A DNA stretch of 16,564 bases from an uncultured Fibrobacterota bacterium (GTDB lineage: Bacteria > Fibrobacterota > Chitinivibrionia > Chitinivibrionales > FEN-1185). Shown one piece after another: positions 5,064 to 16,564 of this stretch. The DNA is taken from positions 1-16,564 of the forward strand of contig CAVWBU010000014.1 in assembly GCA_963753345.1 (NCBI GenBank), given 5' to 3'. Numbering within the stretch: the stretch's first letter is position 1; each line of letters opens with the position of its first letter. A program made the position numbers and the translations under genes. The notes below the pieces were generated by a model that saw nothing but the letters and a program-made list of their open reading frames with translations, made no database searches and was not told the origin of the DNA.

Positions 5064-5371
5064 ATTATTTCCAGACAATGTGTTAGATTGTTTAAAATGT
5101 TAAGCGATGCCCAGCAACCTCGCTTGCTGGATAAGGCAAAAAAATAAATAAAACACCGGCCCCACCGCGAACAATTTAATAAATAGTTATCTGTCCTGCT
5201 ACAAACAGGTTATAATGTTGAGTTCTCAAATGGCAGCTTCGAATTTCCAGTGATATCATGATACTGCACATAATTTAATGGAAGTTCTCCTAAGACAATG
5301 TAAAATTGGAATGAGATAGAAAAGCCCCTAAACCTGCATCACAACGATTTTCAGAGAATTATTTTGAAATC

Positions 5372-5463
5372 AGAGGGGTTGGAACTGGTGTTCCGGCTGG
5401 TCTTCAAAACCAGTGGCGGGCGGATAACACCGTCTGTGGCAGGTTCGATTCCTGCCCTCTCTG
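5372..5463 (+). tRNA. selC: tRNA-Sec (anticodon UCA)
   Basis: D-arm TGGAAC-TGGT-GTTCCG (5380-5395). 6-bp anticodon stem with loop CTTCAAA (TCA at 5404-5406). 8-bp variable arm 5416-5437. T-arm GCAGG-TTCGATT-CCTGC. Acceptor AGAGGGG/CCTCTCT. Adjacent to selA. The 5' end is 5371 or 5372, and CCA is not encoded. Confidence 0.95.
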
Positions 5464-5497
5464 CACGAACGTTCACTTTGGAGCAGGCCCCAGTCCC

Positions 5498-6914
5498 ATG
5501 CGAAAATCGAATGCCCACCTGCAATCGCTTCCCAGTGTCGATTCCGTGCTCAAGAGTTCCGAGGTCGCGCAGCTTGCCGCGGAGCACGGAAGAGCGCTGT
5601 GCGTGTTTGCCGTGCGCGAGGCACTGTCGGCGCTCCGGGCGCGCCTCGCGCGCCTCGCATCCGGCGGCGCCGCCGCAGACGAACGCGAAATCCCTGCGCT
5701 GGTCGCGGCGCTCGTGCGTTCTCTCGCAAGCCCGTCGCTTGTGCGGGTTGTCAACGCAACCGGCGTGATTCTTCACACGAACCTCGGCCGGGCGGTGCTC
5801 GGCGAGACGGTACTCGCCGACATGGCCGACGTTGTTACCGGCTATTCGAATATCGAATTCGATCTGGAAAGCGGCGGCCGCGGCAGCCGAAACCATCATG
5901 TCGCCGCGCTCCTGCGGTTCCTCACGGGCGCGGAGGATGTCCTTGTTGTCAACAACAACGCGGCCGCCATTGTACTTGCGCTGTCGACGCTCGCCGCGGG
6001 CCGCGAGGTGATTGTTTCGCGCGGCGAACTCATCGAGATCGGCGGCGAATTCCGCATTCCCGACATCATGGCCGCATCCGGCTGCACCATGGTGGAGGTG
6101 GGCGCCACCAACCGCACGCGCATTGCCGATTACGAAAAGGCAATCACTCGCAACACGGCCGTCATTTTCAAGGCGCACAAGTCGAACTATGCCATCACCG
6201 GCTTTGTCGAGGAGGCTTCGCTCGAACAATGCGCGGCGCTGGCGAAAAAGAAGCGATTGCCGTTTGTCTATGACCTCGGCTCCGGGCTGCTCCGGAAGGT
6301 GCGCTCCCTGCCCCTCGAGGGCGAGCCCGATGCGGCCTCGTCAATCGCAGCGGGCGCCGACCTCGTCCTTTTCTCGGGCGACAAGCTGCTCGGCGGCCCG
6401 CAGGCGGGCATCATCGCCGGGAAGAAGAAGCTTGTGGCCCGGCTTGCCAAGGCGCCGCTCATGCGCGCCCTGCGCGTGGGGAAGCTCACCATGGCGGCTT
6501 TGTCGTCCGCATGCAGAAGCCATCTCGAGGATGAGTCGCTTGTCAAGAACAACCCCACCTTCGCCATGCTGTCGCGGGACCGCGACGAAATCCGGCAGCG
6601 CGCCGAGCGCGCTTGCGCAGGATGTTGCCGCGCGCGGGATACCGTGTACGGTCGAAGACACGAAGGGCCAGTGCGGCGGCGGCACCCTGCCAGGCCTGCT
6701 TGTCCCGAGCGCTGCCGTGGTGCTTGACAAAAAGGGCCCGCGGGCGGGCGACTCCCTCCGCCTCGTGGCGGCCCGTCTCAGAAGGGCGCGGCCGCCCGTC
6801 GTTGCGGTCCTGCGTGAGGGCCGTCTCGTGTTCGACATGCTCGCGGTCGCGGAGGCCGACCTGCCGCACTGCGCAAAGGCGATCGCCGCGGCGCTCGGGG
6901 CGGGGGAGCCGTGA
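5498..6914 (+). CDS. selA: L-seryl-tRNA(Sec) selenium transferase, with one +1 frameshift near 6608-6611
   Basis: Motifs [53 protein letters not shown] and [13 protein letters not shown] (PLP Lys). The C-terminal domain (GGGTLPG...[15 protein letters not shown]) lies in the 6012..6914 frame. Joined length is 471 aa. Confidence 0.93.
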
Positions 6915-8853
6915 TCCACAGCATCGTGGGGACCGCGGGCCACGTCGACCATGGTAAAACCGCACTTGTCAAGGCCCTCACCGGCATCGACTGCGACACC
7001 CACAAGGAAGAAAAACGGCGCGGCATCACCATCAACCTCGGGTTCGCGCATCTTTCACTCCCGTCGGGCGACACGGTGGGCATCGTGGACGTGCCAGGGC
7101 ACCGCGATTTCGTGCACACCATGGCGGCGGGCGCGCACGGCATCGACGTGGTGCTCATGGTGATCGCGGCCGACGAGGGCGTGATGCCGCAGACCGTTGA
7201 ACACCTGCGCATCTGCGAGGCGCTCGGCATTTCGGCCGGCGTGATCGCCCTCAACAAGGCCGACCTCGTCGACGAACCGGGACTTGCGGCGGCGCGCGCC
7301 CGGCTCGCGGAATTTACAAAAGGGACATTCCTTGACGGCTGCCCTGTGGTGCCTGTGTCGGCGCTTTCCGGGCGGGGGATCCCGGAACTGGTTGCGGCCA
7401 TAGCGGCCGAGGTCACCGCGTCACCCCGTCGAGCCGGAAGCGGCGTATTCCGCATGTACATAGACCGGATCTTTTCGGTGAGCGGGTTCGGCACCGTGGT
7501 GACCGGGTCGGTGATCGGCGGTTCCCTTCGCACCGGCGCCGCGGCATGGCTGCTGCCCGGGGGCAAGGAGCTGCGCGTGCGGCGCATGGAGCGGTACGGT
7601 GCGGAGACCGACGAAGTTGTCGCGGGAGACCGCGCCTCGCTCAATCTGGCGGGTCTTTCCAAAGAGGAATTCCGGCGGGGCATGCTCCTTGCCGACCGGC
7701 CGCTTGCCGAAACGACCCTGCTCGACGCGGCGGTTCGGCTGTTCCCGGGCGTCAAGCCGCTGCCGGTGTGGTCGCAGGCGGAATTCATCATGGGCACTTT
7801 CGAGGCCCAGGCAAAGATCCATCTCATCGACGCCGACAGCCTGTCGCCCGGCACATCGGGCCTTGCCCAGATCCACCTGCCGCTGCCCTGCGTCGCGCAG
7901 GCACAGGACGCGTTCGTGCTGCGCACGAGCTCGGGCGACGCTACCATCGGCGGCGGCACCGTTATCGACCCGCACCCGCTGCACCACCGGCGGCGGCCCG
8001 ACAACCTGGTGCAACAGCTCAGAGAACTTTCGGGCGGAAAACTGCCCATGCTTGCCGCCGCCGAAGCCGCCAAGCATCCGGCCGGCATCGAGCGATTCGC
8101 GCTTGCCGAGGCGCTCAACGTGTCGCCGCAGGACGTGGATGCCATTGACAAAAGCGGATTTCCCGGCGGCATGGTGGCGCTCGCGTCGGAAGAAAAGCGG
8201 TTCTTATATTTCGCCGGCACGCTACGACGAGCTCGCTGCGAAGGCAAAAAAAAACATAGCCGAGTATCATGCCGCCAATCCGCTGCTCGAAACCGGAAGG
8301 ACCGCCGAGGAAATGCAGGGGATTCTGGGCATGGGCGGAGGCGACAACGGCAAAACACGTGTGCCTGCTGCTGCTGGAAAAGCTCGTGCGCGACGGCGCG
8401 CTCGGCCGCGCGGGCCGCACCTACGTGCTGGCGGGCCATTCGGTGAATCTTACCAAAGAGGAACGTGAGCAGTGCCGGATTGTGGAGGATTACATCCTCA
8501 AATGCGGCATGCAGGCGCCTGTTCTTGCGGAGCTCGAGGCGCATGCCAAGCGGGCCGGCATCGAGGGAAAGCGGCTCTCGCATCTGCTCAAGTTCATGTC
8601 GTCGTCACGCGTGCTGTACGCAGTCGAGGGAACGTTCCTGCACGCGTCGGTTGTTGACAAATGCCGTAAAGCCCTCTGCGCTGAGCTGGCGAAGCATCCC
8701 GAAGGGCTCACGGTTGCGCAGTTCCGCGACCTCGTGTCGGGGAACCGCAAGATCTGCCTCATGCTGTACGCGCTGTTTGACGCCGAGGGAACAACCGAGC
8801 GCAGGGGAGACGCGCGGGTGCTTAAGGAACCGCGGGTTGTTGTTGACGCATGA
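6911..8853 (+). CDS. selB: Selenocysteine-specific elongation factor, with two +1 frameshifts (~8200-8222 and ~8352-8355)
   Basis: Motifs [29 protein letters not shown] and [16 protein letters not shown]. It continues in the 7599-frame ([11 protein letters not shown]) and then the 8269-frame to the SECIS-binding winged helix ([10 protein letters not shown]...RRGDAR). Joined length is 646 aa. GTGA overlap with selA. Confidence 0.92.
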
Positions 8854-10902: not shown

Positions 10903-11020
10903 ACCACGCCCTATGGGCGTGGTGCACAATGTTACGCTAAAGCGCTGACGCGCTTTTCTTTGATTTCGGGGGTTACACCCCCTCATCAAAGAACCACGGC
11001 CTATGGCCGTGGTTCTTTAC
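10903..11020. mobile_element. Putative non-autonomous palindromic miniature element (IS200/IS605-end-like, PATE/REP-like)
   Basis: Two related palindromes, ACCACGCCC-TAT-GGGCGTGGT (10903-10923) and AAAGAACCACGGCC-TAT-GGCCGTGGTTCTTT (10988-11018), enclose two more hairpins (10939-10956 and 10956-10993). No transposase is present. Confidence 0.55.
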
Positions 11021-11086
11021 TTCCAATTCCTAATTAGAAATATTATTGCGGGGGAAGTATCCCCCTCGCTCCGGCCCTTCGACACC

Positions 11087-14002
11087 ATGGAAACACAACT
11101 TTCCCCGCGCGCTTCGCGCGCTTCGCGCGCAAGCGGCCGCCTGATGTGGCTTGTGTACTTCCTGTTCTGCCTGTCGGGGTGCATCGGGCTGGTGTACGAA
11201 GCGCTCTGGGCGCGGTACCTCAAGATTTTCCTGGGCCATTCGTCCTACGGGCAGATCATCACTCTGGTGATCTACATGGGCGGGCTCGGCGCAGGCAGCT
11301 TTATAAGCGGGAAAATCGGCAGGCGCACCCGAAACGCATTTCTTCTTTACGCAAGCATCGAGTTTCTTGTGGGCATGGGCGGATTTGTCTTTCACGAAGA
11401 GTTCGTGTCCGTCACCCGGGTCTTTTTCAACACGGTAAGGCACAGCAGTCTGTCTCCTTTGTCAGTCCATGTCTACAAGGTGCTGACTTCCATCGCGCTT
11501 GCCGGGCCGGTTTCCGTGCTTCTGGGCATGACCTTCCCCGCGCTGGCCATCGCGGTCATGCGGTTGACCAAAGACCAGGGCAGGGTCTCGCTTCCCCGGC
11601 TTTATTTCACGAATTCCCTGGGCGCCGCGGCCGGGATCGTGCTTACGTCCTATGTGCTTGTTCCCGGTTTCGGGACGCCGGGGGCGCTCGCGCTTGCCGC
11701 GGCCGGAAACATGGTGATTGCCGCGGGGTTCTGGTTTATTTCCCGTTTCGCAAATGCCGGCGGAGAAACCCTCTTTTCCGCCGGTTCTCCCGGCGTGCAG
11801 ACAGCTGCCTCGGGAATCAAAAACCCAGTGGTGTTCTGGCTCGCGATCGCCGCGGCAACCGGAATGTCGTCTTTTGTCTACGAAACCGGCTGGACAAGGC
11901 TCATAAGCCTTCTTCTGGGCTCCTCCACCCATGCCTTTGACATAATGATATCTGCATTTATTCTGGGGCTTGCGCTGGGCGGGCTCTTCTCGGCGCGCAT
12001 CCTCAAGAAGCCGGACAGCGCAGGGCCGGCGCTTGCAGTAATCCAGGTGTGCATGGGCGGCCTGGCCCTGGCCAGCCTGTACCTTTACAAACCGTTTTTC
12101 CTGGCCGTCAACACCTTTAACGACATACTCCTGCGCACCGAAGTTTCCTATGCAGTCTACTCGGTGTTCAAATACGTCCTCTGCGTGGCGCTGGTGAGCC
12201 CGGCAAGTTTTTTTGCGGGAATGACCCTGCCACTGCTTACCTATGTGCTTGTCCGGAGGACCGGCAATGAAAAGCATGTGGGCTACCTGTACGGCTGGAA
12301 TACGCTTGGCTCCATTGCGGGCGCAGCTCTAGGCGGCATGGTGCTGCTTCCCGCACTCCAGCTCAAGATGACAATCGCGTCCGGCGCGTTTATCGACATA
12401 GGCCTGGGACTGCTTTTATGTGCACTGTTCGTTACAAACGCGACTCGGCGATCTGCTCTCTTTGGCGCGGCTTTGGCAAGCAGCGTACCGGTCTTCTTTG
12501 TCTCTCTCGATCCCGGCGTCGTGACCAGCGGAGCTTTCAGGTCGCATGCAGACTTCGGCAGCCGCCTCGAAACAGTGACGCAGCGCGACGGTGCGACCGC
12601 CACCATTTCTTTTCACCGCAGAAGCGATGTTGCGTTCATCAAGACCAACGGCAAGACCGATGCGAGCGCGGCGCCCGGCGGCGCCGCGGCTGTGGTGGAC
12701 GAGTACACACAGGCGGCCCTTGCCTTTTATCCCATGAGCGTAATTGAGAAAAGGTATTCCGCCGCCGTTATCGGATTCGGCAGCGGCATGACCGCCCACT
12801 ACCTGCTGTGCGACCCTTTGCTGGAACGCGTGGATATTGTCGAAATAGAAAAGGAGATGGTGCGGCTCGCGAAGGGCTTTTTGCCCGCCAACCGCAGGGT
12901 GTTCGAAGATTCCCGCGCCAGAATCGTCATCGACGATGCGAAAACCTATTTCAACACCTCGAGGAAGACCTACGACCTGATCGTGTCCGAGCCTTCCAAC
13001 CCGTGGGTGAGCGGCGTCTCGGGCCTGTTTACCGCCGAGTTCTACCGCGACGTCGTGCCGTTCCTCGCGGACAGCGGCCTCATGGTGCAATGGCTCCATC
13101 TTTACGAATTCAATTCCGATCTCGTGCTCGGTGTTGTCAAGGCGCTTTCAACGACGTTTCCCGAAATAAAAATCTACGCGGTGCCTGCAGCTTCCACCGA
13201 CATCGTTATCCTCGCGTCAAGGAGACCTTTTTCGTTCGGGCCCGCTCAAAGGTTCCGCACGCCGGACATTCTTGAGCATATCCGCCTGCTCAGGGACGAC
13301 CCCGCGCTTTTTGGGGAACGCAATTTCCTGGTGACCGGCCGCAGCCTCACGCCGCTTCTGCGCTACTTTCGCCCTAACTCCGATTACTTCCCGATCCTCG
13401 ACAACGGCGCGGAAAAGGCCTTTTTCCTCCGGTCGCAGGCCCGGCTTTTTGCGCCATTTACGTCCACGTCTGTTTCGTATCAAGAGTTCATGGACCCGGA
13501 AATGGCGGCAGTGGTGCGAACGGAACGCGAAAAGGTTTATCGTGAGGTTCACAAGAATATCGTCGCGGCAGCCAATTTGTCCGGTCATGCCGAATCAGGA
13601 CAGTCTGGACCGCAGCTGGGAGCCATTGAGAACGTCGTGTTTTCATACTTCACCGTGGGCACGGCTGCGGCCGAGTGGGACACTTTGCGGCCTGTCGTGC
13701 AATTCCGCCGTTTCGCAGCCGAAGGCCGGCTCACTGCTTCGCAACGATTCCGCTTTCGAGTGCTCGACTGTCTTGAACATGGCGATTCCGCGGCTGTGCA
13801 TTCCACAGCGCTCGCAGCAGCAGATTCATTGCCGGCCGGAGAGACAGGCAATGATTTTGTGCGCCTGCTTGTGTCGGTTGCTGTGAAGAACAACGATCGC
13901 GGATTGCTTGACAAAATCTATTGGAGATTCATGGCACGGAATCCCGCGTTTGAGAAGACCGAGAGGATGATGATTGCGGAGAGGATAAGGGCAATGCGAT
14001 AG
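11087..14002 (+). CDS. Membrane-fused spermidine-synthase-like protein (multi-TM domain plus SAM-dependent transferase fold)
   Basis: Duplicated TM module (SGCIGLVYEALWARYL / TGMSSFVYETGWTRLI), then VIGFGSGMT, VEIE, DDAK and YDLIVSEPSNPWVSGVSGLFTAEFY. The ORF-track ATG 11003 lies inside the palindrome, so 11087 (or 11144) is more likely. Confidence 0.88.
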   Translation: METQLSPRASRASRASGRLMWLVYFLFCLSGCIGLVYEALWARYLKIFLGHSSYGQIITLVIYMGGLGAGSFISGKIGRRTRNAFLLYASIEFLVGMGGFVFHEEFVSVTRVFFNTVRHSSLSPLSVHVYKVLTSIALAGPVSVLLGMTFPALAIAVMRLTKDQGRVSLPRLYFTNSLGAAAGIVLTSYVLVPGFGTPGALALAAAGNMVIAAGFWFISRFANAGGETLFSAGSPGVQTAASGIKNPVVFWLAIAAATGMSSFVYETGWTRLISLLLGSSTHAFDIMISAFILGLALGGLFSARILKKPDSAGPALAVIQVCMGGLALASLYLYKPFFLAVNTFNDILLRTEVSYAVYSVFKYVLCVALVSPASFFAGMTLPLLTYVLVRRTGNEKHVGYLYGWNTLGSIAGAALGGMVLLPALQLKMTIASGAFIDIGLGLLLCALFVTNATRRSALFGAALASSVPVFFVSLDPGVVTSGAFRSHADFGSRLETVTQRDGATATISFHRRSDVAFIKTNGKTDASAAPGGAAAVVDEYTQAALAFYPMSVIEKRYSAAVIGFGSGMTAHYLLCDPLLERVDIVEIEKEMVRLAKGFLPANRRVFEDSRARIVIDDAKTYFNTSRKTYDLIVSEPSNPWVSGVSGLFTAEFYRDVVPFLADSGLMVQWLHLYEFNSDLVLGVVKALSTTFPEIKIYAVPAASTDIVILASRRPFSFGPAQRFRTPDILEHIRLLRDDPALFGERNFLVTGRSLTPLLRYFRPNSDYFPILDNGAEKAFFLRSQARLFAPFTSTSVSYQEFMDPEMAAVVRTEREKVYREVHKNIVAAANLSGHAESGQSGPQLGAIENVVFSYFTVGTAAAEWDTLRPVVQFRRFAAEGRLTASQRFRFRVLDCLEHGDSAAVHSTALAAADSLPAGETGNDFVRLLVSVAVKNNDRGLLDKIYWRFMARNPAFEKTERMMIAERIRAMR

Positions 14003-14105
14003 ATGGAAGGCGTTCGGCGGAAGAAAGGTATACAAGGCAAGAAAAAGCATCCGGGAGGGGGAAGTACAGCCTGTCTCAAAACTCAAGAGAAGATTTGGGC
14101 GCCCC

Positions 14106-14210
14106 GCTTGGCTAGACCGGCCTTTCCGGTCAGCAGGAGGGGCCTGTCTTCTGCCAGAGAACACTTTCTTTCAAAGAGGCTTGAATAGAGTGGAATTGAA
14201 AGTATATTAT
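14106..14210 (+). repeat. Repeat copy A (blocks Y+Z) ending in a putative sigma70 promoter for the GH16 gene
   Basis: 14106-14137 matches 15436-15467 at 30/32 nt. 14127-14182 aligns with 15574-15631 (about 46/58 by manual alignment). TTGAAT at 14181-14186 is followed by TATATT/TATTAT at 14203-14210. Confidence 0.85.
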
Positions 14211-14232
14211 GAGGGTAAAAGGAGCCAGAAAT

Positions 14233-15297
14233 ATGAACAACTTTAACGAGTGTCCTTTGTCAGGAATACTTCCATTATTATTTGTACTATTATTCATTGC
14301 GATTGCGTCCGCAGCCCCGCCGTCAGGTTATTCCCTTGTCTGGTCTGATGAATTCGACAGCACGGCACTTGATACAAACAATTGGAGTTATGATACAGGC
14401 GGATATTGGCCTACTCCACAGCAACAATTTTATACCAACGGCCTTAATATGTCTTTTGAAAACGGCTCTGCGATCCTTTGGGCGAAAAAGCAGACATACG
14501 GCCAAAATCCCTACACTTCTTGCTACATCACCACCCAAGGCAAACGAGAATTCAAATACGGCTATATCGAAGTGAGGCTGGAAGGTCCCTACGGCATTGG
14601 GCCGTGGGCGGTATTCTGGATGATGGGAGCAAATTACCCTACCGTGTCGTGGCCGGAGTGTGGAGAAATTGAAATATATGATCAAATGACAGGGCCTCGA
14701 AACTTTAATGCAGCATCTCCCGGCGATAGTGGCTATGTTGTATCTTGTGATTTTGCAGGGACCACTGGCGGACCAATTTATAATCGTCAACCCTACGGTT
14801 ATACGGAATGCCTGTGCAATAATTATCATTTGTATGCCATTGAATGGGACTCTCTCGGAATTAAGTATTTCTTCGATGGCAAGGAATTCTGGGAATATGA
14901 CACCATCAACGCAAGCTACAATTTCTCTTCCTTTCATCAGCCTTTTTGTTTCATTGCAAATCTTATAGTATATGGCTATATAACTGATACAACCATCTTC
15001 CCACAGAAGATGTCCATCGACTACGTCCGGGTGTATCAGAAGAGCACACAGGTAAAAGCTAGTCCGCAGAAAAGCGCATTGAAAATCTTTACTTTATCGA
15101 ATCCGTCACAAGCCCAATTGAGGGTATATAACCTCCAAGGCCGCTTGATCGCTGATTACACCGACAGAGTAAGGATCATGAAAACCGGTGAGAATGTGAT
15201 GAAGGGCATAGCATCAAATTTACCCATCGGAATATATGTGACCAGGCTCTTTGACGGTGTGAAAACGGTCTCGGAAAAGCTGGTCATCCAGAAATAA
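14233..15297 (+). CDS. Secreted glycoside hydrolase family 16 (laminarinase-like fold) with T9SS-type C-terminal domain
   Basis: AAGGAG RBS 8 nt before ATG 14233. Signal peptide ending ASA, then LVWSDEF, FKYGYIEVR, WPECGEIEIYD, YHLYAIEW and MSIDYVRVYQ. The C-terminus has VYNLQGRLI...GIYVTRL...KLVIQK. Confidence 0.9.
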   Translation: MNNFNECPLSGILPLLFVLLFIAIASAAPPSGYSLVWSDEFDSTALDTNNWSYDTGGYWPTPQQQFYTNGLNMSFENGSAILWAKKQTYGQNPYTSCYITTQGKREFKYGYIEVRLEGPYGIGPWAVFWMMGANYPTVSWPECGEIEIYDQMTGPRNFNAASPGDSGYVVSCDFAGTTGGPIYNRQPYGYTECLCNNYHLYAIEWDSLGIKYFFDGKEFWEYDTINASYNFSSFHQPFCFIANLIVYGYITDTTIFPQKMSIDYVRVYQKSTQVKASPQKSALKIFTLSNPSQAQLRVYNLQGRLIADYTDRVRIMKTGENVMKGIASNLPIGIYVTRLFDGVKTVSEKLVIQK

Positions 15298-15375
15298 GGT
15301 ACATGAATTGCCAGTGTCTTTTATCCTCTTCAATAAGTAATTCAGCCCTTCGTCCCTTTGTCCTAGCCCCTCGCC

Positions 15376-15494
15376 CCGTGACGCCCAACTGAACCGTACC
15401 CCTTATCCATGGAATATCTACTGAGTCAAGGTCTGGCTTGGCTTGACAGGCCTTTCCGGTCAGCAGGTGGAGAACCGGTGGACCCAAGTTGTCG
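15376..15494 (+). repeat. Repeat copy B (blocks X+Y), first unit of a ~119-bp tandem duplication
   Basis: 15376-15427 matches 15495-15545 at 47/52 nt, including TATCCATGGAATATCTACTG. 15436-15467 matches 14106-14137. Confidence 0.9.
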
Positions 15495-15658
15495 CCGTGA
15501 CGCCCAATTGACCCATACCCCTATCCATGGAATATCTACTGGGTCTCATTTCTGGTGTGCTAGAGTGGACTTGCGGTCAGCAAGAGCGGCCCTGGTTTTC
15601 TGCCAGAAAACGGTTTCTTTGAAAAAGACTTCACTTTTGGGGTGTTTGGGTGTATTAT
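15495..15658 (+). repeat. Repeat copy C (blocks X+Y+Z) ending in a putative sigma70 promoter for the lipoprotein gene
   Basis: X block as in copy B, a diverged Y block (GCTAGA...CGGTCAGCA), and a Z block homologous to copy A. TTCACT (15630-15635), 17 nt, then TATTAT (15653-15658). Confidence 0.85.
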
Positions 15659-15781
15659 TGGGTGAGGGCGGGGCATTGGCGCCACACTGTGCGCCAAGCA
15701 GGTGGAGTGAGTGGTCAGCCACAAGGCACTTCAAAATCGAAGGTTTCCAGTGCAGGCCGCCGTATTGCGGGGGGTAAGAAT

Positions 15782-16441
15782 ATGAAGCAACTTATGACAT
15801 TGCCAGCTGTATTGATGCTCGTGGCAATGTGCTCGAATCCTGTGACACACCATTCCGTCTCAAAGGTCGACTTTGCACCGATAGCTCTGGGAAATACCTG
15901 GGTGTATGCGTGCAGTGATGAAATATGTTGTCCATGTGTCTCCTCAATTGGCCTGAAGACAATGACTATCATAACAGTAGATAGTATGAAAGACCGCATC
16001 GTCTTTGAAGTAAAAATACGAGACAGTTTACTCTCGGAAATGACGGACTGCGATACTGTCATATACGATTCATTGACCTCAGATACTTCATATACCGATA
16101 CCCTTGTCAAGTTCTATGATGTAGACACCATTAAAAACTTGCAGGGGGAATATCCGCCGAGCGGCGTAAATTATGCGTCATCTGGCGTATACTTTGGTCT
16201 AACGACCATTCCACCAAAGGACACATTAGTGACTGATACAATAACTAAATACAACAACCTCATAGAATGTGTATTACCTGGATACATGTATTGGGATTTA
16301 ACACAAACATATTTACAGAATGTAGGAATAACATACTATGCTTGGCAATTATGTCCCATGAATGCTTCAGTATCTGGTGGATATCACGCGGTTCTTCTGA
16401 CTTTCAACGGCAAGACGCCGGAACAAATTTCTAAAGAGTGA
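15782..16441 (+). CDS. Putative lipoprotein of unknown function, Cys-rich and probably beta-rich
   Basis: 219 aa from ATG 15782, with a G-rich SD upstream. MKQ plus a hydrophobic stretch plus VAM|CSNP forms a lipobox-like signal. Also FAPIALGNTWVY and YLQNVGI segments. Visibly AT-richer than the core genes. Confidence 0.75.
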   Translation: MKQLMTLPAVLMLVAMCSNPVTHHSVSKVDFAPIALGNTWVYACSDEICCPCVSSIGLKTMTIITVDSMKDRIVFEVKIRDSLLSEMTDCDTVIYDSLTSDTSYTDTLVKFYDVDTIKNLQGEYPPSGVNYASSGVYFGLTTIPPKDTLVTDTITKYNNLIECVLPGYMYWDLTQTYLQNVGITYYAWQLCPMNASVSGGYHAVLLTFNGKTPEQISKE

Positions 16442-16564
16442 ACAACATTCTCATGAAAACCAGGAACAAAAGGGCATGCGAATGCCGGTACTTTGCAAAG
16501 GCGATTTTCGGGAGAGGGGAGACGGTGAAGGGGTTTACGGTGGTGAGGTGAGGAGGCGAACGGT

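Follow-up and report, generated by a model that had tools for sequence, protein, structure and literature searches.

We analysed three related intergenic repeat modules (A, B and C) on contig C14 (CAVWBU010000014.1), which in its full length of 16,564 nt is the window of this study and belongs to the genome of an uncultured Fibrobacterota bacterium (G000; 4.5 Mb in 55 contigs). The modules are built from blocks named X, Y and Z, and lie around a gene for a laminarinase-like protein of glycoside hydrolase family 16 (GH16) and in front of a second gene, open reading frame 2 (ORF2). An earlier note, made from the letters alone, had interpreted them as an integron-like array, in which unrelated secreted-protein genes are added, swapped or excised by recombination at Y. 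We conclude instead that the repeat blocks are a patchwork of a promoter type shared by secretome genes (Z) and two unrelated scattered repeats, with no demonstrated cassette system. The modules are probably a mosaic of three independent sequence families, namely Z, the X+Y repeat, and a fragment of an element that resembles repetitive extragenic palindromic (REP) sequences.

The most useful new result is a candidate operator-regulator pair for the TIGR02147/DUF4423 family, read from sequence comparison and structure prediction. The candidate regulator, a putatively autoregulated helix-turn-helix (HTH) protein predicted to bind GTTTTC-N5-GAAAAC, would be the first testable functional lead for this large and uncharacterised family. 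The analysis also defines a promoter architecture with its operator for secreted proteins and type IX secretion system (T9SS) cargo in an uncultured Fibrobacterota lineage, and it is possible, by searching for the operator, to predict which secreted proteins are under this control in related metagenome-assembled genomes. A cassette array would be a new gene-capture system, an idea that the evidence does not carry.

Repeat modules around the GH16 gene

A repeat search and a three-way alignment confirmed the layout that the earlier note had described, in which A (14106-14210) consists of Y+Z, B (15376-15494) of X+Y, and C (15495-15658) of X+Y+Z. The features of the locus are listed below, with the -35/-10 pairs placed by a consensus scan.

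14040-14108, + strand: R1 fragment, the truncated 5' part of a high-copy REP-like element, fused to Y_A (nhmmer profile)
14106-14140, + strand: Y_A block, Y only, without X in this strain (X+Y profile match at 14104-14142, E 3.6e-5)
14146-14162, + strand: operator-like palindrome of module A, GTCTTCTGCCAGAGAAC, with 2 mismatches to GTTTTC-N5-GAAAAC
14163-14210, + strand: GH16 promoter, with T-tract, -35 TTGAAT (14181-14186) and -10 TATATTAT (14203-14210) (consensus scan)
14233-15297, + strand: laminarinase-like gene of GH16; the product has a signal peptide and a T9SS type A sorting domain
15376-15494, + strand: module B, with X_B (15376-15435), Y_B (15436-15480) and a 14-nt linker (X+Y profile, E 2e-28)
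15495-15590, + strand: part of module C, X_C and a diverged Y_C (X+Y profile, E 7.8e-24)
15595-15611, + strand: operator-like palindrome of module C, GTTTTCTGCCAGAAAAC, exact
15612-15658, + strand: ORF2 promoter, with T-tract, -35 TTCACT (15630-15635) and -10 TATTAT (15653-15658) (consensus scan)
15782-16441, + strand: ORF2, a 219-aa lipoprotein-like exported protein without a family
16475-16564, + strand: remnant of the 3' end of a T9SS C-terminal-domain (CTD) coding sequence, repeated, in which the contig breaks

The direct repeat that had been seen 1330 nt apart on both sides of the GH16 gene was found as 35 nt with 91% identity (14106-14140 versus 15436-15470). The tandem copies of X are offset by 118-119 nt (15376-15403/15495-15522, 89% identity; 15400-15427/15518-15545, 93%), and the Z block of A matches that of C at 81% identity over 37 nt (14146-14182/15595-15631). 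As had been proposed, a -35/-10 pair occupies the homologous position in A (TTGAAT at 14181, with TATATT/TATTAT ending at 14208/14210) and in C (TTCACT at 15630, with TATTAT ending at 15658). Module C follows B directly, with neither a Z block nor a gene in between, in agreement with the description of B as lacking both. The genes behind A and C encode unrelated proteins, both with exported-type N-termini, and both genes are, as previously stated, AT-richer than the rest (GC 0.441 for GH16 and 0.415 for ORF2, compared with a genome ORF mean of 0.564, standard deviation 0.060). Blocks X, Y and Z all recur elsewhere in G000.

A promoter type shared by secreted-protein genes

Block Z is a promoter of ~65 bp with ~30 copies in the genome. 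Its layout comprises the 17-bp palindrome GTTTTC-N5-GAAAAC, a T-tract reading RCTTTCTTT, a -35-like hexamer, and a TATATTAT -10 at 40/41 nt. Palindrome arms with at most one mismatch were found at 57 sites in G000, compared with 18 in the reversed genome, and a -10-like hexamer lies exactly 40/41 nt past the palindrome at 19 of the 57 sites, compared with 332 of 200,000 random positions (0.17%). Modules A and C both obey this spacing, the -10 of A being 40 nt past its palindrome.

Thirty sites with the full architecture were picked and the first downstream ORF was read. Signal-peptide-like N-termini, as judged by a crude rule, were present in 22 of 28 downstream ORFs, versus 889 of 2879 background ORFs (Fisher p 3e-7); three of the six ORFs that the rule missed, GH16 included, visibly begin with hydrophobic residues. 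Of 22 downstream proteins scanned against Pfam, eight carry Por_Secre_tail, the T9SS sorting domain, and others include Laminin_G_3, BNR/sortilin, VIT and beta-propeller proteins, a TonB-type receptor and one DUF4423 protein. Most of the ~30 Z loci have no X+Y. The earlier note had counted Z as part of the exchanged cassette, a view not supported here: Z reads as a regulon promoter that is kept across families of the order.

If the -10 hexamer is placed at -12 to -7, the centre of the palindrome would fall near -61, where class I activator sites are classically located, and Z would be an activator-type promoter. The position and the putative activating role are both deduced from the spacing; a search for RNA runs that contain this stretch returned none. 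By this promoter, GH16 and ORF2 would be plugged into a regulon of ~30 genes, mostly for secreted proteins or T9SS cargo.

The similarity between individual Z blocks was examined in 22 canonical Z promoters over the 40-nt spacer from palindrome to -10, where the median pairwise identity is 40%. The pair formed by Z_A and the promoter at C35:3447 stands first among 231 pairs (88% identity), and the two are 90% identical over 62 nt, while Z_A and Z_C rank 17th of 231 with 55%. The promoter at C35:3447 precedes an unrelated 249-aa T9SS protein with FlgD_ig and CTD matches. Judged by these identities, Z_A looks like a recent copy of the C35:3447 promoter, that is, promoter reuse within the regulon. 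It was not copied from Z_C, and promoter reuse does not tie A to C. Among the Z promoters, only four, which form a subfamily, look copied.

Conservation of the palindrome and a candidate regulator

We then counted exact palindromes across the order. There are 21 in G000, 6-25 in each of the five congeners compared, 6-23 in family f2, 3-10 in f3 and 0-5 in the order's other families; the two other genera of the window's own family (f1) have three (G006) and one (G007), and controls read backwards gave 0-2. The six genomes without a DUF4423 match have 0-1 palindromes each.

The DUF4423 gene that lies behind a Z promoter in G000 (C41:168363-169196) encodes a protein with a full-length TIGR02147 match (285.7 bits) and has orthologues in 23 of 25 genomes (E<=1e-40). 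At 15 of 18 loci examined the palindrome is located 97-253 nt upstream of the orthologue's start codon (13 exact, two with one mismatch), and these loci span families f1, f2, f3, f4, f7 and f8. The three misses are the two most distant orthologues (41-43% identity) and G002, for which there are just 305 nt of upstream sequence. Because the palindrome precedes the gene's own coding sequence at 15 of the 18 loci, the protein is the likely, and putatively autoregulated, regulator of the Z regulon. The central five bases of the palindrome vary between genomes while its arms are constant, so that it reads as a protein-binding site and not as a hairpin. In family f2 (G008, G016; loci L252-L267), the -10 lies at +52 and not at +40/41, about one helical turn further, in 6 of 16 cases. 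Several of these sites precede exported proteins.

An AlphaFold model was made from 11 orthologues, with a mean pLDDT (predicted local distance difference test) of 69.6, and 75-93 over the first 100 residues. Residues 8-91 of the model match XRE/Cro-type HTH domains (best Z 9.2, root-mean-square deviation 2.9, 81 aligned residues), and residues ~105-225 match ArsR/SmtB-type winged helices (Z 6-7.8).

Several observations count against assigning the regulon to this protein. A Foldseek search of the model against the PDB gave no match at E<=0.001, the VIA Z values of the structural matches fall in a range that the tool calls common, and the confidence of the model is middling overall. Palindrome counts do not follow how many DUF4423 paralogues a genome has (G039, for example, has 24 paralogues and no palindrome), some genomes with the orthologue have 1-3 palindromes only, and the regulator loci of G000 and G001 are near-identical and hence not independent. 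DUF4423 copy number was also tried as a predictor of palindrome count and rejected, as there was no simple correlation. No published description of the operator, or of a regulatory role for DUF4423 proteins, was found in the full-text literature searched.

The palindrome and T-tract could alternatively be a weak intrinsic terminator or insulator in front of the promoters, as opposed to a protein-binding operator. A hairpin followed by CTTTCTTT does look terminator-like, and Y_A together with the start of Z scores as such in a consensus scan. However, conservation is limited to the 6-nt arms, the central 5 nt vary freely and in many cases could not pair with themselves, and the stem would consist of six A/U-rich pairs. 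A terminator would also leave unaccounted for a -10 distance that is fixed at 40/41 nt or one helical turn more, and the retention of the palindrome upstream of one regulator gene across families. We therefore regard a terminator as highly improbable, and prefer the reading of the palindrome as an operator.

Distribution of the X+Y repeat

The X+Y repeat is ~110 nt long. An nhmmer profile of eight copies gave 11 hits in G000 at E<1e-3, of which the window has three, C32 four and C21 two, with a single hit on C40 and another on C46. Full copies share a sharp 5' edge at CCGTGACGCCC, and their 3' ends lie at differing points. This 11-mer is invariant in all eight aligned copies, and the small palindromes CAATTG and CCATGG are likewise kept. 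X+Y is usually located upstream of the next gene and co-oriented with it. Among 40 relatives searched, X+Y was found in two congeners only, and X_C+Y_C is 77% identical to a copy in one of them (G005:C56:1274-1380). In a scan of metagenome contigs, a stricter two-part pattern recovered a single contig (L268), which has a Y-linker-X junction as in B/C before the gene for an outer-membrane-like protein. A scan of genome contigs with a degenerate 17-nt pattern was set aside as too loose: its 120 matches in unrelated phyla were all chance.

These numbers bear on another explanation, in which the modules arose by a single local duplication and mean nothing beyond it. B and C do form a tandem with an offset of 118-119 nt, but eight further X+Y hits lie on four other contigs, besides those in two congeners and on one metagenome contig, and Z is present at ~30 loci. 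The genome-wide block search, which had been proposed as the test of whether just three copies exist, thereby refuted such a duplication, and we hold it to be scarcely credible.

Two further candidates for the nature of X+Y were tried. It has no inverted repeat within it, and an RNAalifold consensus of -6.32 kcal/mol showed compensatory change in 0 of 19 pairs; a structured RNA was rejected for lack of covariation. A coding N-terminus (MEYLLG...) was also rejected, as substitutions are not biased to third positions and one copy contains a stop. An Rfam scan (the window plus seven repeat loci, E<=1) returned tRNA-Sec and tRNAs only and left the modules unmatched, and ARAGORN predicted no tRNA in the seven repeat loci.

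Links between X+Y, tRNA genes and mobile DNA

Two loci, one at C40:91.5 kb and one at C32:190.0 kb, have the 3' 49 nt of tRNA-Arg(ACG) within ~25 nt past Y, together with a terminator common to both. The terminator behind these displaced tRNA halves resembles that of the live tRNA-Arg gene in the congener G005. In G000, the live tRNA-Arg gene (C31:8744-8818) has a different downstream sequence and is adjoined by a truncated tyrosine integrase (C31:8075-8683). The tRNA-Arg loci show the pattern expected of an element that integrated in a tRNA gene, in which X+Y would be on the element side. In addition, excisionase-like HTH genes lie beside X on C21, at C32:212 kb and at G005:C56, although the family match is weak (E 0.006).

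We infer that X+Y most likely derives from an integrative element that targeted tRNA-Arg(ACG), as a relic of the arm of its attachment region on the element side, and that the repeat would have been spread and reshuffled by recombination. X+Y would mark recombination-prone accessory regions, and its arrangement and copy number do vary between strains. Against this origin stand the facts that only two of the 11 X+Y hits touch a tRNA fragment and none of those in the window does, that G000 and G002 have unrelated integrases (21% identity) close to their X+Y arrays, and that five X+Y copies are located upstream of exported-protein genes, which would fit a regulatory role equally well.

The last point leads to a competing explanation, in which X+Y serves the control region of the following gene as a cis-regulatory module of clustered protein-binding sites and is kept by selection and not by mobility. 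Copies are upstream and co-oriented at ORF2, the GH16 gene of the peat strains, the C46 lipoprotein, a PAS kinase, katG, the outer-membrane-like protein of L268, and a CTD protein of G005, and the constancy of the 11-mer and of the two small palindromes would also suit binding sites. Furthermore, a copy next to an FGE-sulfatase gene is 81% identical in two species, where the flanking intergenic DNA is unalignable. Yet that same copy points away from the FGE-sulfatase gene and converges on the 3' end of the neighbouring gene in both species, two other copies precede merely a dead tRNA fragment, copies are truncated at different 3' points, and the repeat was found in just two congeners among the 40 relatives. 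We consider a cis-regulatory module unlikely, and retain the attachment-arm relic as the preferred origin of X+Y.

A few observations on the surrounding mobile DNA were made along the way. At C21:33737-34132, an excisionase-like HTH gene (74 aa) lies between inverted X fragments, and a fragment of the same gene is located next to X+Y at C32:212.6 kb in the opposite orientation; this arrangement could be the scar of a DNA inversion. The interval C32:186609-187951 holds tRNA-Phe followed by an intact tyrosine integrase, and the 3' 46 nt of this tRNA recur at the very end of C23; the two are the ends of one island that was split by the assembly. In G005 (C44:36150-37720; L058:6150-7720), tRNA-Arg(ACG) and its terminator are followed by a 424-aa ORF with a signal-peptide-like start, and then by a ~35-nt repeat of the tRNA 3' end and a second terminator, forming a one-gene insertion bounded by repeats resembling attachment (att) sites.

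The REP-like element at Y_A

The R1 profile matches 14040-14131 (nhmmer, E 6.6e-13), and genome-wide there are 121 exact cores and 428 profile hits. The element is GC-rich and ~150 nt long, and its hairpins show compensatory changes between copies (for example, CGCCGC/GCGGCG versus CGCTGC/GCAGCG). A deletion at a CCCCG microhomology would have joined the R1 fragment to Y_A. We also considered Y as a derivative of the REP-like element and rejected it: the profile reaches Y_A only through the fusion, and other X+Y copies score E>100. There is a short similarity, GGAGGAGAACCGGTG, to one reversed R1 copy, and some link of Y to the REP-like element may exist.

Strain comparisons and the cassette proposal

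The proposal of exchangeable units was compared with related genomes and with contigs of four public metagenome runs. In a refined form of it, [X+Y(+Z)+gene] units are non-autonomous, have repeats derived from an attachment site as their bounds, and are added, swapped or excised in trans by a tyrosine recombinase of a tRNA-Arg-targeting element. Such a process would be closer to the accretion of cis-mobilisable elements than to an integron. We regard it as distinctly improbable.

Part of the evidence does favour recombination at Y. Each of the two displaced 3' halves of tRNA-Arg has Y directly in front of it. On C32, (X+)Y copies at 190.0, 193.1 and 194.7 kb enclose one gene between each consecutive pair (first a PAS kinase, next an esterase); a partial copy lies farther off at 212.8 kb, and a tyrosine integrase is located 2 kb beyond the tRNA fragment. 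Between conserved anchors, G002 has 1.27 kb (a hypothetical gene and a split GH16 paralogue) and G000 has 4.73 kb, which includes two extra units bounded by (X+)Y. The G005 insertion likewise places its single ORF between tRNA-Arg and a repeat of the tRNA-Arg 3' end, and the Y-linker-X junction appears again in the unrelated contig L268. Finally, the earlier note had proposed comparing the locus across strains, and different arrangements were indeed present on metagenome contigs. In two metagenome runs from a single study, an X copy stands before GH16 and is joined at 14102 (15540->14102) via eight foreign bases, and other contigs jump back by 95-110 nt inside the B/C tandem. A further joint (15620->16487) was discarded as evidence, as its short side has 25 letters and belongs to a paralogous locus; uncovered parts were discarded too.

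On the other side, the 1330-bp circle and the A/B junction that the note had suggested looking for did not appear: no circle or empty-site junction was found in the contigs, where rare excision products would not be represented, and the sole A/B-type joint is the 15540->14102 one, in which the eight foreign bases and the X copy are not those of the window. Instead of a circle, this joint indicates that A used to be a complete X+Y+Z module; this strain would have lost X from A when the REP-like fragment fused to Y_A. With its nearest GH16 orthologue (G004, 79% nucleotide identity), the window has just 14311-15283 in common and none of the modules. PF00589 (tyrosine recombinase) has eight matches in the genome and none on C14, which ends 123 nt past ORF2 in repeated sequence, so that a recombinase gene may still follow beyond this end. 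The unrelated integrases near the arrays of two species and the absence of a conserved fold or inverted-repeat core in X+Y also argue against the proposal, as does Z being a feature of a regulon at ~30 loci, mostly without X+Y.

What stands of the original claim is therefore the promoter-carrying nature of the repeats before unrelated exported proteins, their spread beyond a local duplication, the contact of Y with both displaced tRNA halves, the (X+)Y-bounded differences in a congener, and the varied arrangements on metagenome contigs; what is not supported is Z as a moving part, the GH16 gene as a unit carried with its modules (the orthologue shares coding sequence only), and excision as a circle. 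The integron likeness itself is not borne out, with an X+Y that has no attC-like fold and genes that each have a promoter of their own. An integron-like or cis-mobilisable cassette mechanism is in our judgement very unlikely. We hold it to be equally unlikely that the X+Y copies are working recombination sites, descended from the attachment region of a tRNA-Arg-targeting element, by which single secretome genes, wired by Z to the DUF4423 regulon, would be captured, shuffled and lost as miniature units without a recombinase. If it were true, the Chitinivibrionales would have a cassette system for T9SS cargo that is free of attC hairpins. The patchwork of a regulon promoter and two scattered repeats remains our reading of the modules.

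The two genes and other features of the window

The GH16 protein has Pfam matches to GH16 and Por_Secre_tail, and a TIGR04183 score of 26.8 bits (cut-off 23). In the PDB, residues 32-270 match endo-1,3-beta-glucanases/laminarinases (E 3e-40). The catalytic motif (ExDxxE) reads EIEIYD, compared with EIDIMS in the aligned laminarinase chain; at residues 143-148 (14659-14676), the usual Asp and the last Glu are apparently swapped for Glu and Asp. No known family was found for ORF2 in protein-family searches, and relatives gave weak matches only.

The remnant at 16475-16564 corresponds to the last ~25 codons of a T9SS C-terminal domain, standing alone 3' of ORF2. Sequences at C41:158812-158884, at C35:186400-186470 and at the beginning of C11 match it with 86-91% identity, and the assembly breaks at this contig end because the remnant is repeated elsewhere in the genome.

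Further upstream, the window holds a complete selenocysteine set at 5371-8446, comprising tRNA-Sec (68.3 bits), selA and selB, with a GC content of 62-72%, far above the genome mean. This tRNA-Sec (5371-5463) is the only tRNA in the window. The neighbouring 999-aa protein with a spermidine-synthase-like domain (11003-14002) has 29-36% identity to proteins in its own genus, none close enough to serve as an anchor for comparing gene order at this locus, and 56% to one in G008, which belongs to another family, and may be accessory or transferred.

Comparison with known systems

Integrons (IntI, attI, attC, and the cassette promoter Pc) share with this locus an array of unrelated single genes separated by related repeats. 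They differ in that their cassettes are promoterless and under a common Pc, whereas each gene here has its own -35/-10 with an operator. The repeats here have no attC-like hairpin, there is no IntI-type gene on the contig, and no excision product was seen in the contigs.

Integrative elements that target tRNA genes share several traits with the X+Y loci outside the window: tRNA 3' halves are displaced together with the ancestral terminator, the live tRNA-Arg gene is adjoined by a truncated integrase, excisionase-like genes neighbour X, and small gene blocks are bounded by repeats. In contrast, the copies in the window have no tRNA fragment, integrase or excisionase gene, the units here are single genes, and the repeat is also present as a 119-nt tandem. 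Decayed relatives of such elements include cis-mobilisable elements, which accrete at att sites, as seen with the integrative and conjugative elements of streptococci.

With REP sequences, bacterial interspersed mosaic elements (BIMEs) and REPINs, the locus has in common that 14040-14108 belongs to a structured, GC-rich intergenic repeat of ~400 copies. X+Y is unlike these in having 11 hits, no conserved hairpin and no compensatory changes.

Promoter reuse has been catalogued under the name of putative mobile promoters (Nijveen, Matus-Garcia and van Passel, Mob Genet Elements 2012, PMC3575422). The shared trait is a highly similar promoter before non-homologous genes, as with Z_A and C35:3447; most of the similarity among Z promoters is imposed by the shared operator and core promoter.

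A close counterpart of Z is the class I activator-dependent sigma-70 promoter. Both have a palindrome whose 6-nt arms have their centres 11 bp apart and which keeps a constant distance upstream of the -35/-10, an alternative spacing one helical turn further, many unlinked genes, and a copy before the presumed regulator's own gene. In class I promoters, CRP sites are centred at -61.5 and -72.5. The half-site GTTTTC differs from those of CRP/FNR, the candidate regulator would come from the uncharacterised TIGR02147/DUF4423 family, and the Z regulon is dominated by T9SS cargo and other exported proteins.

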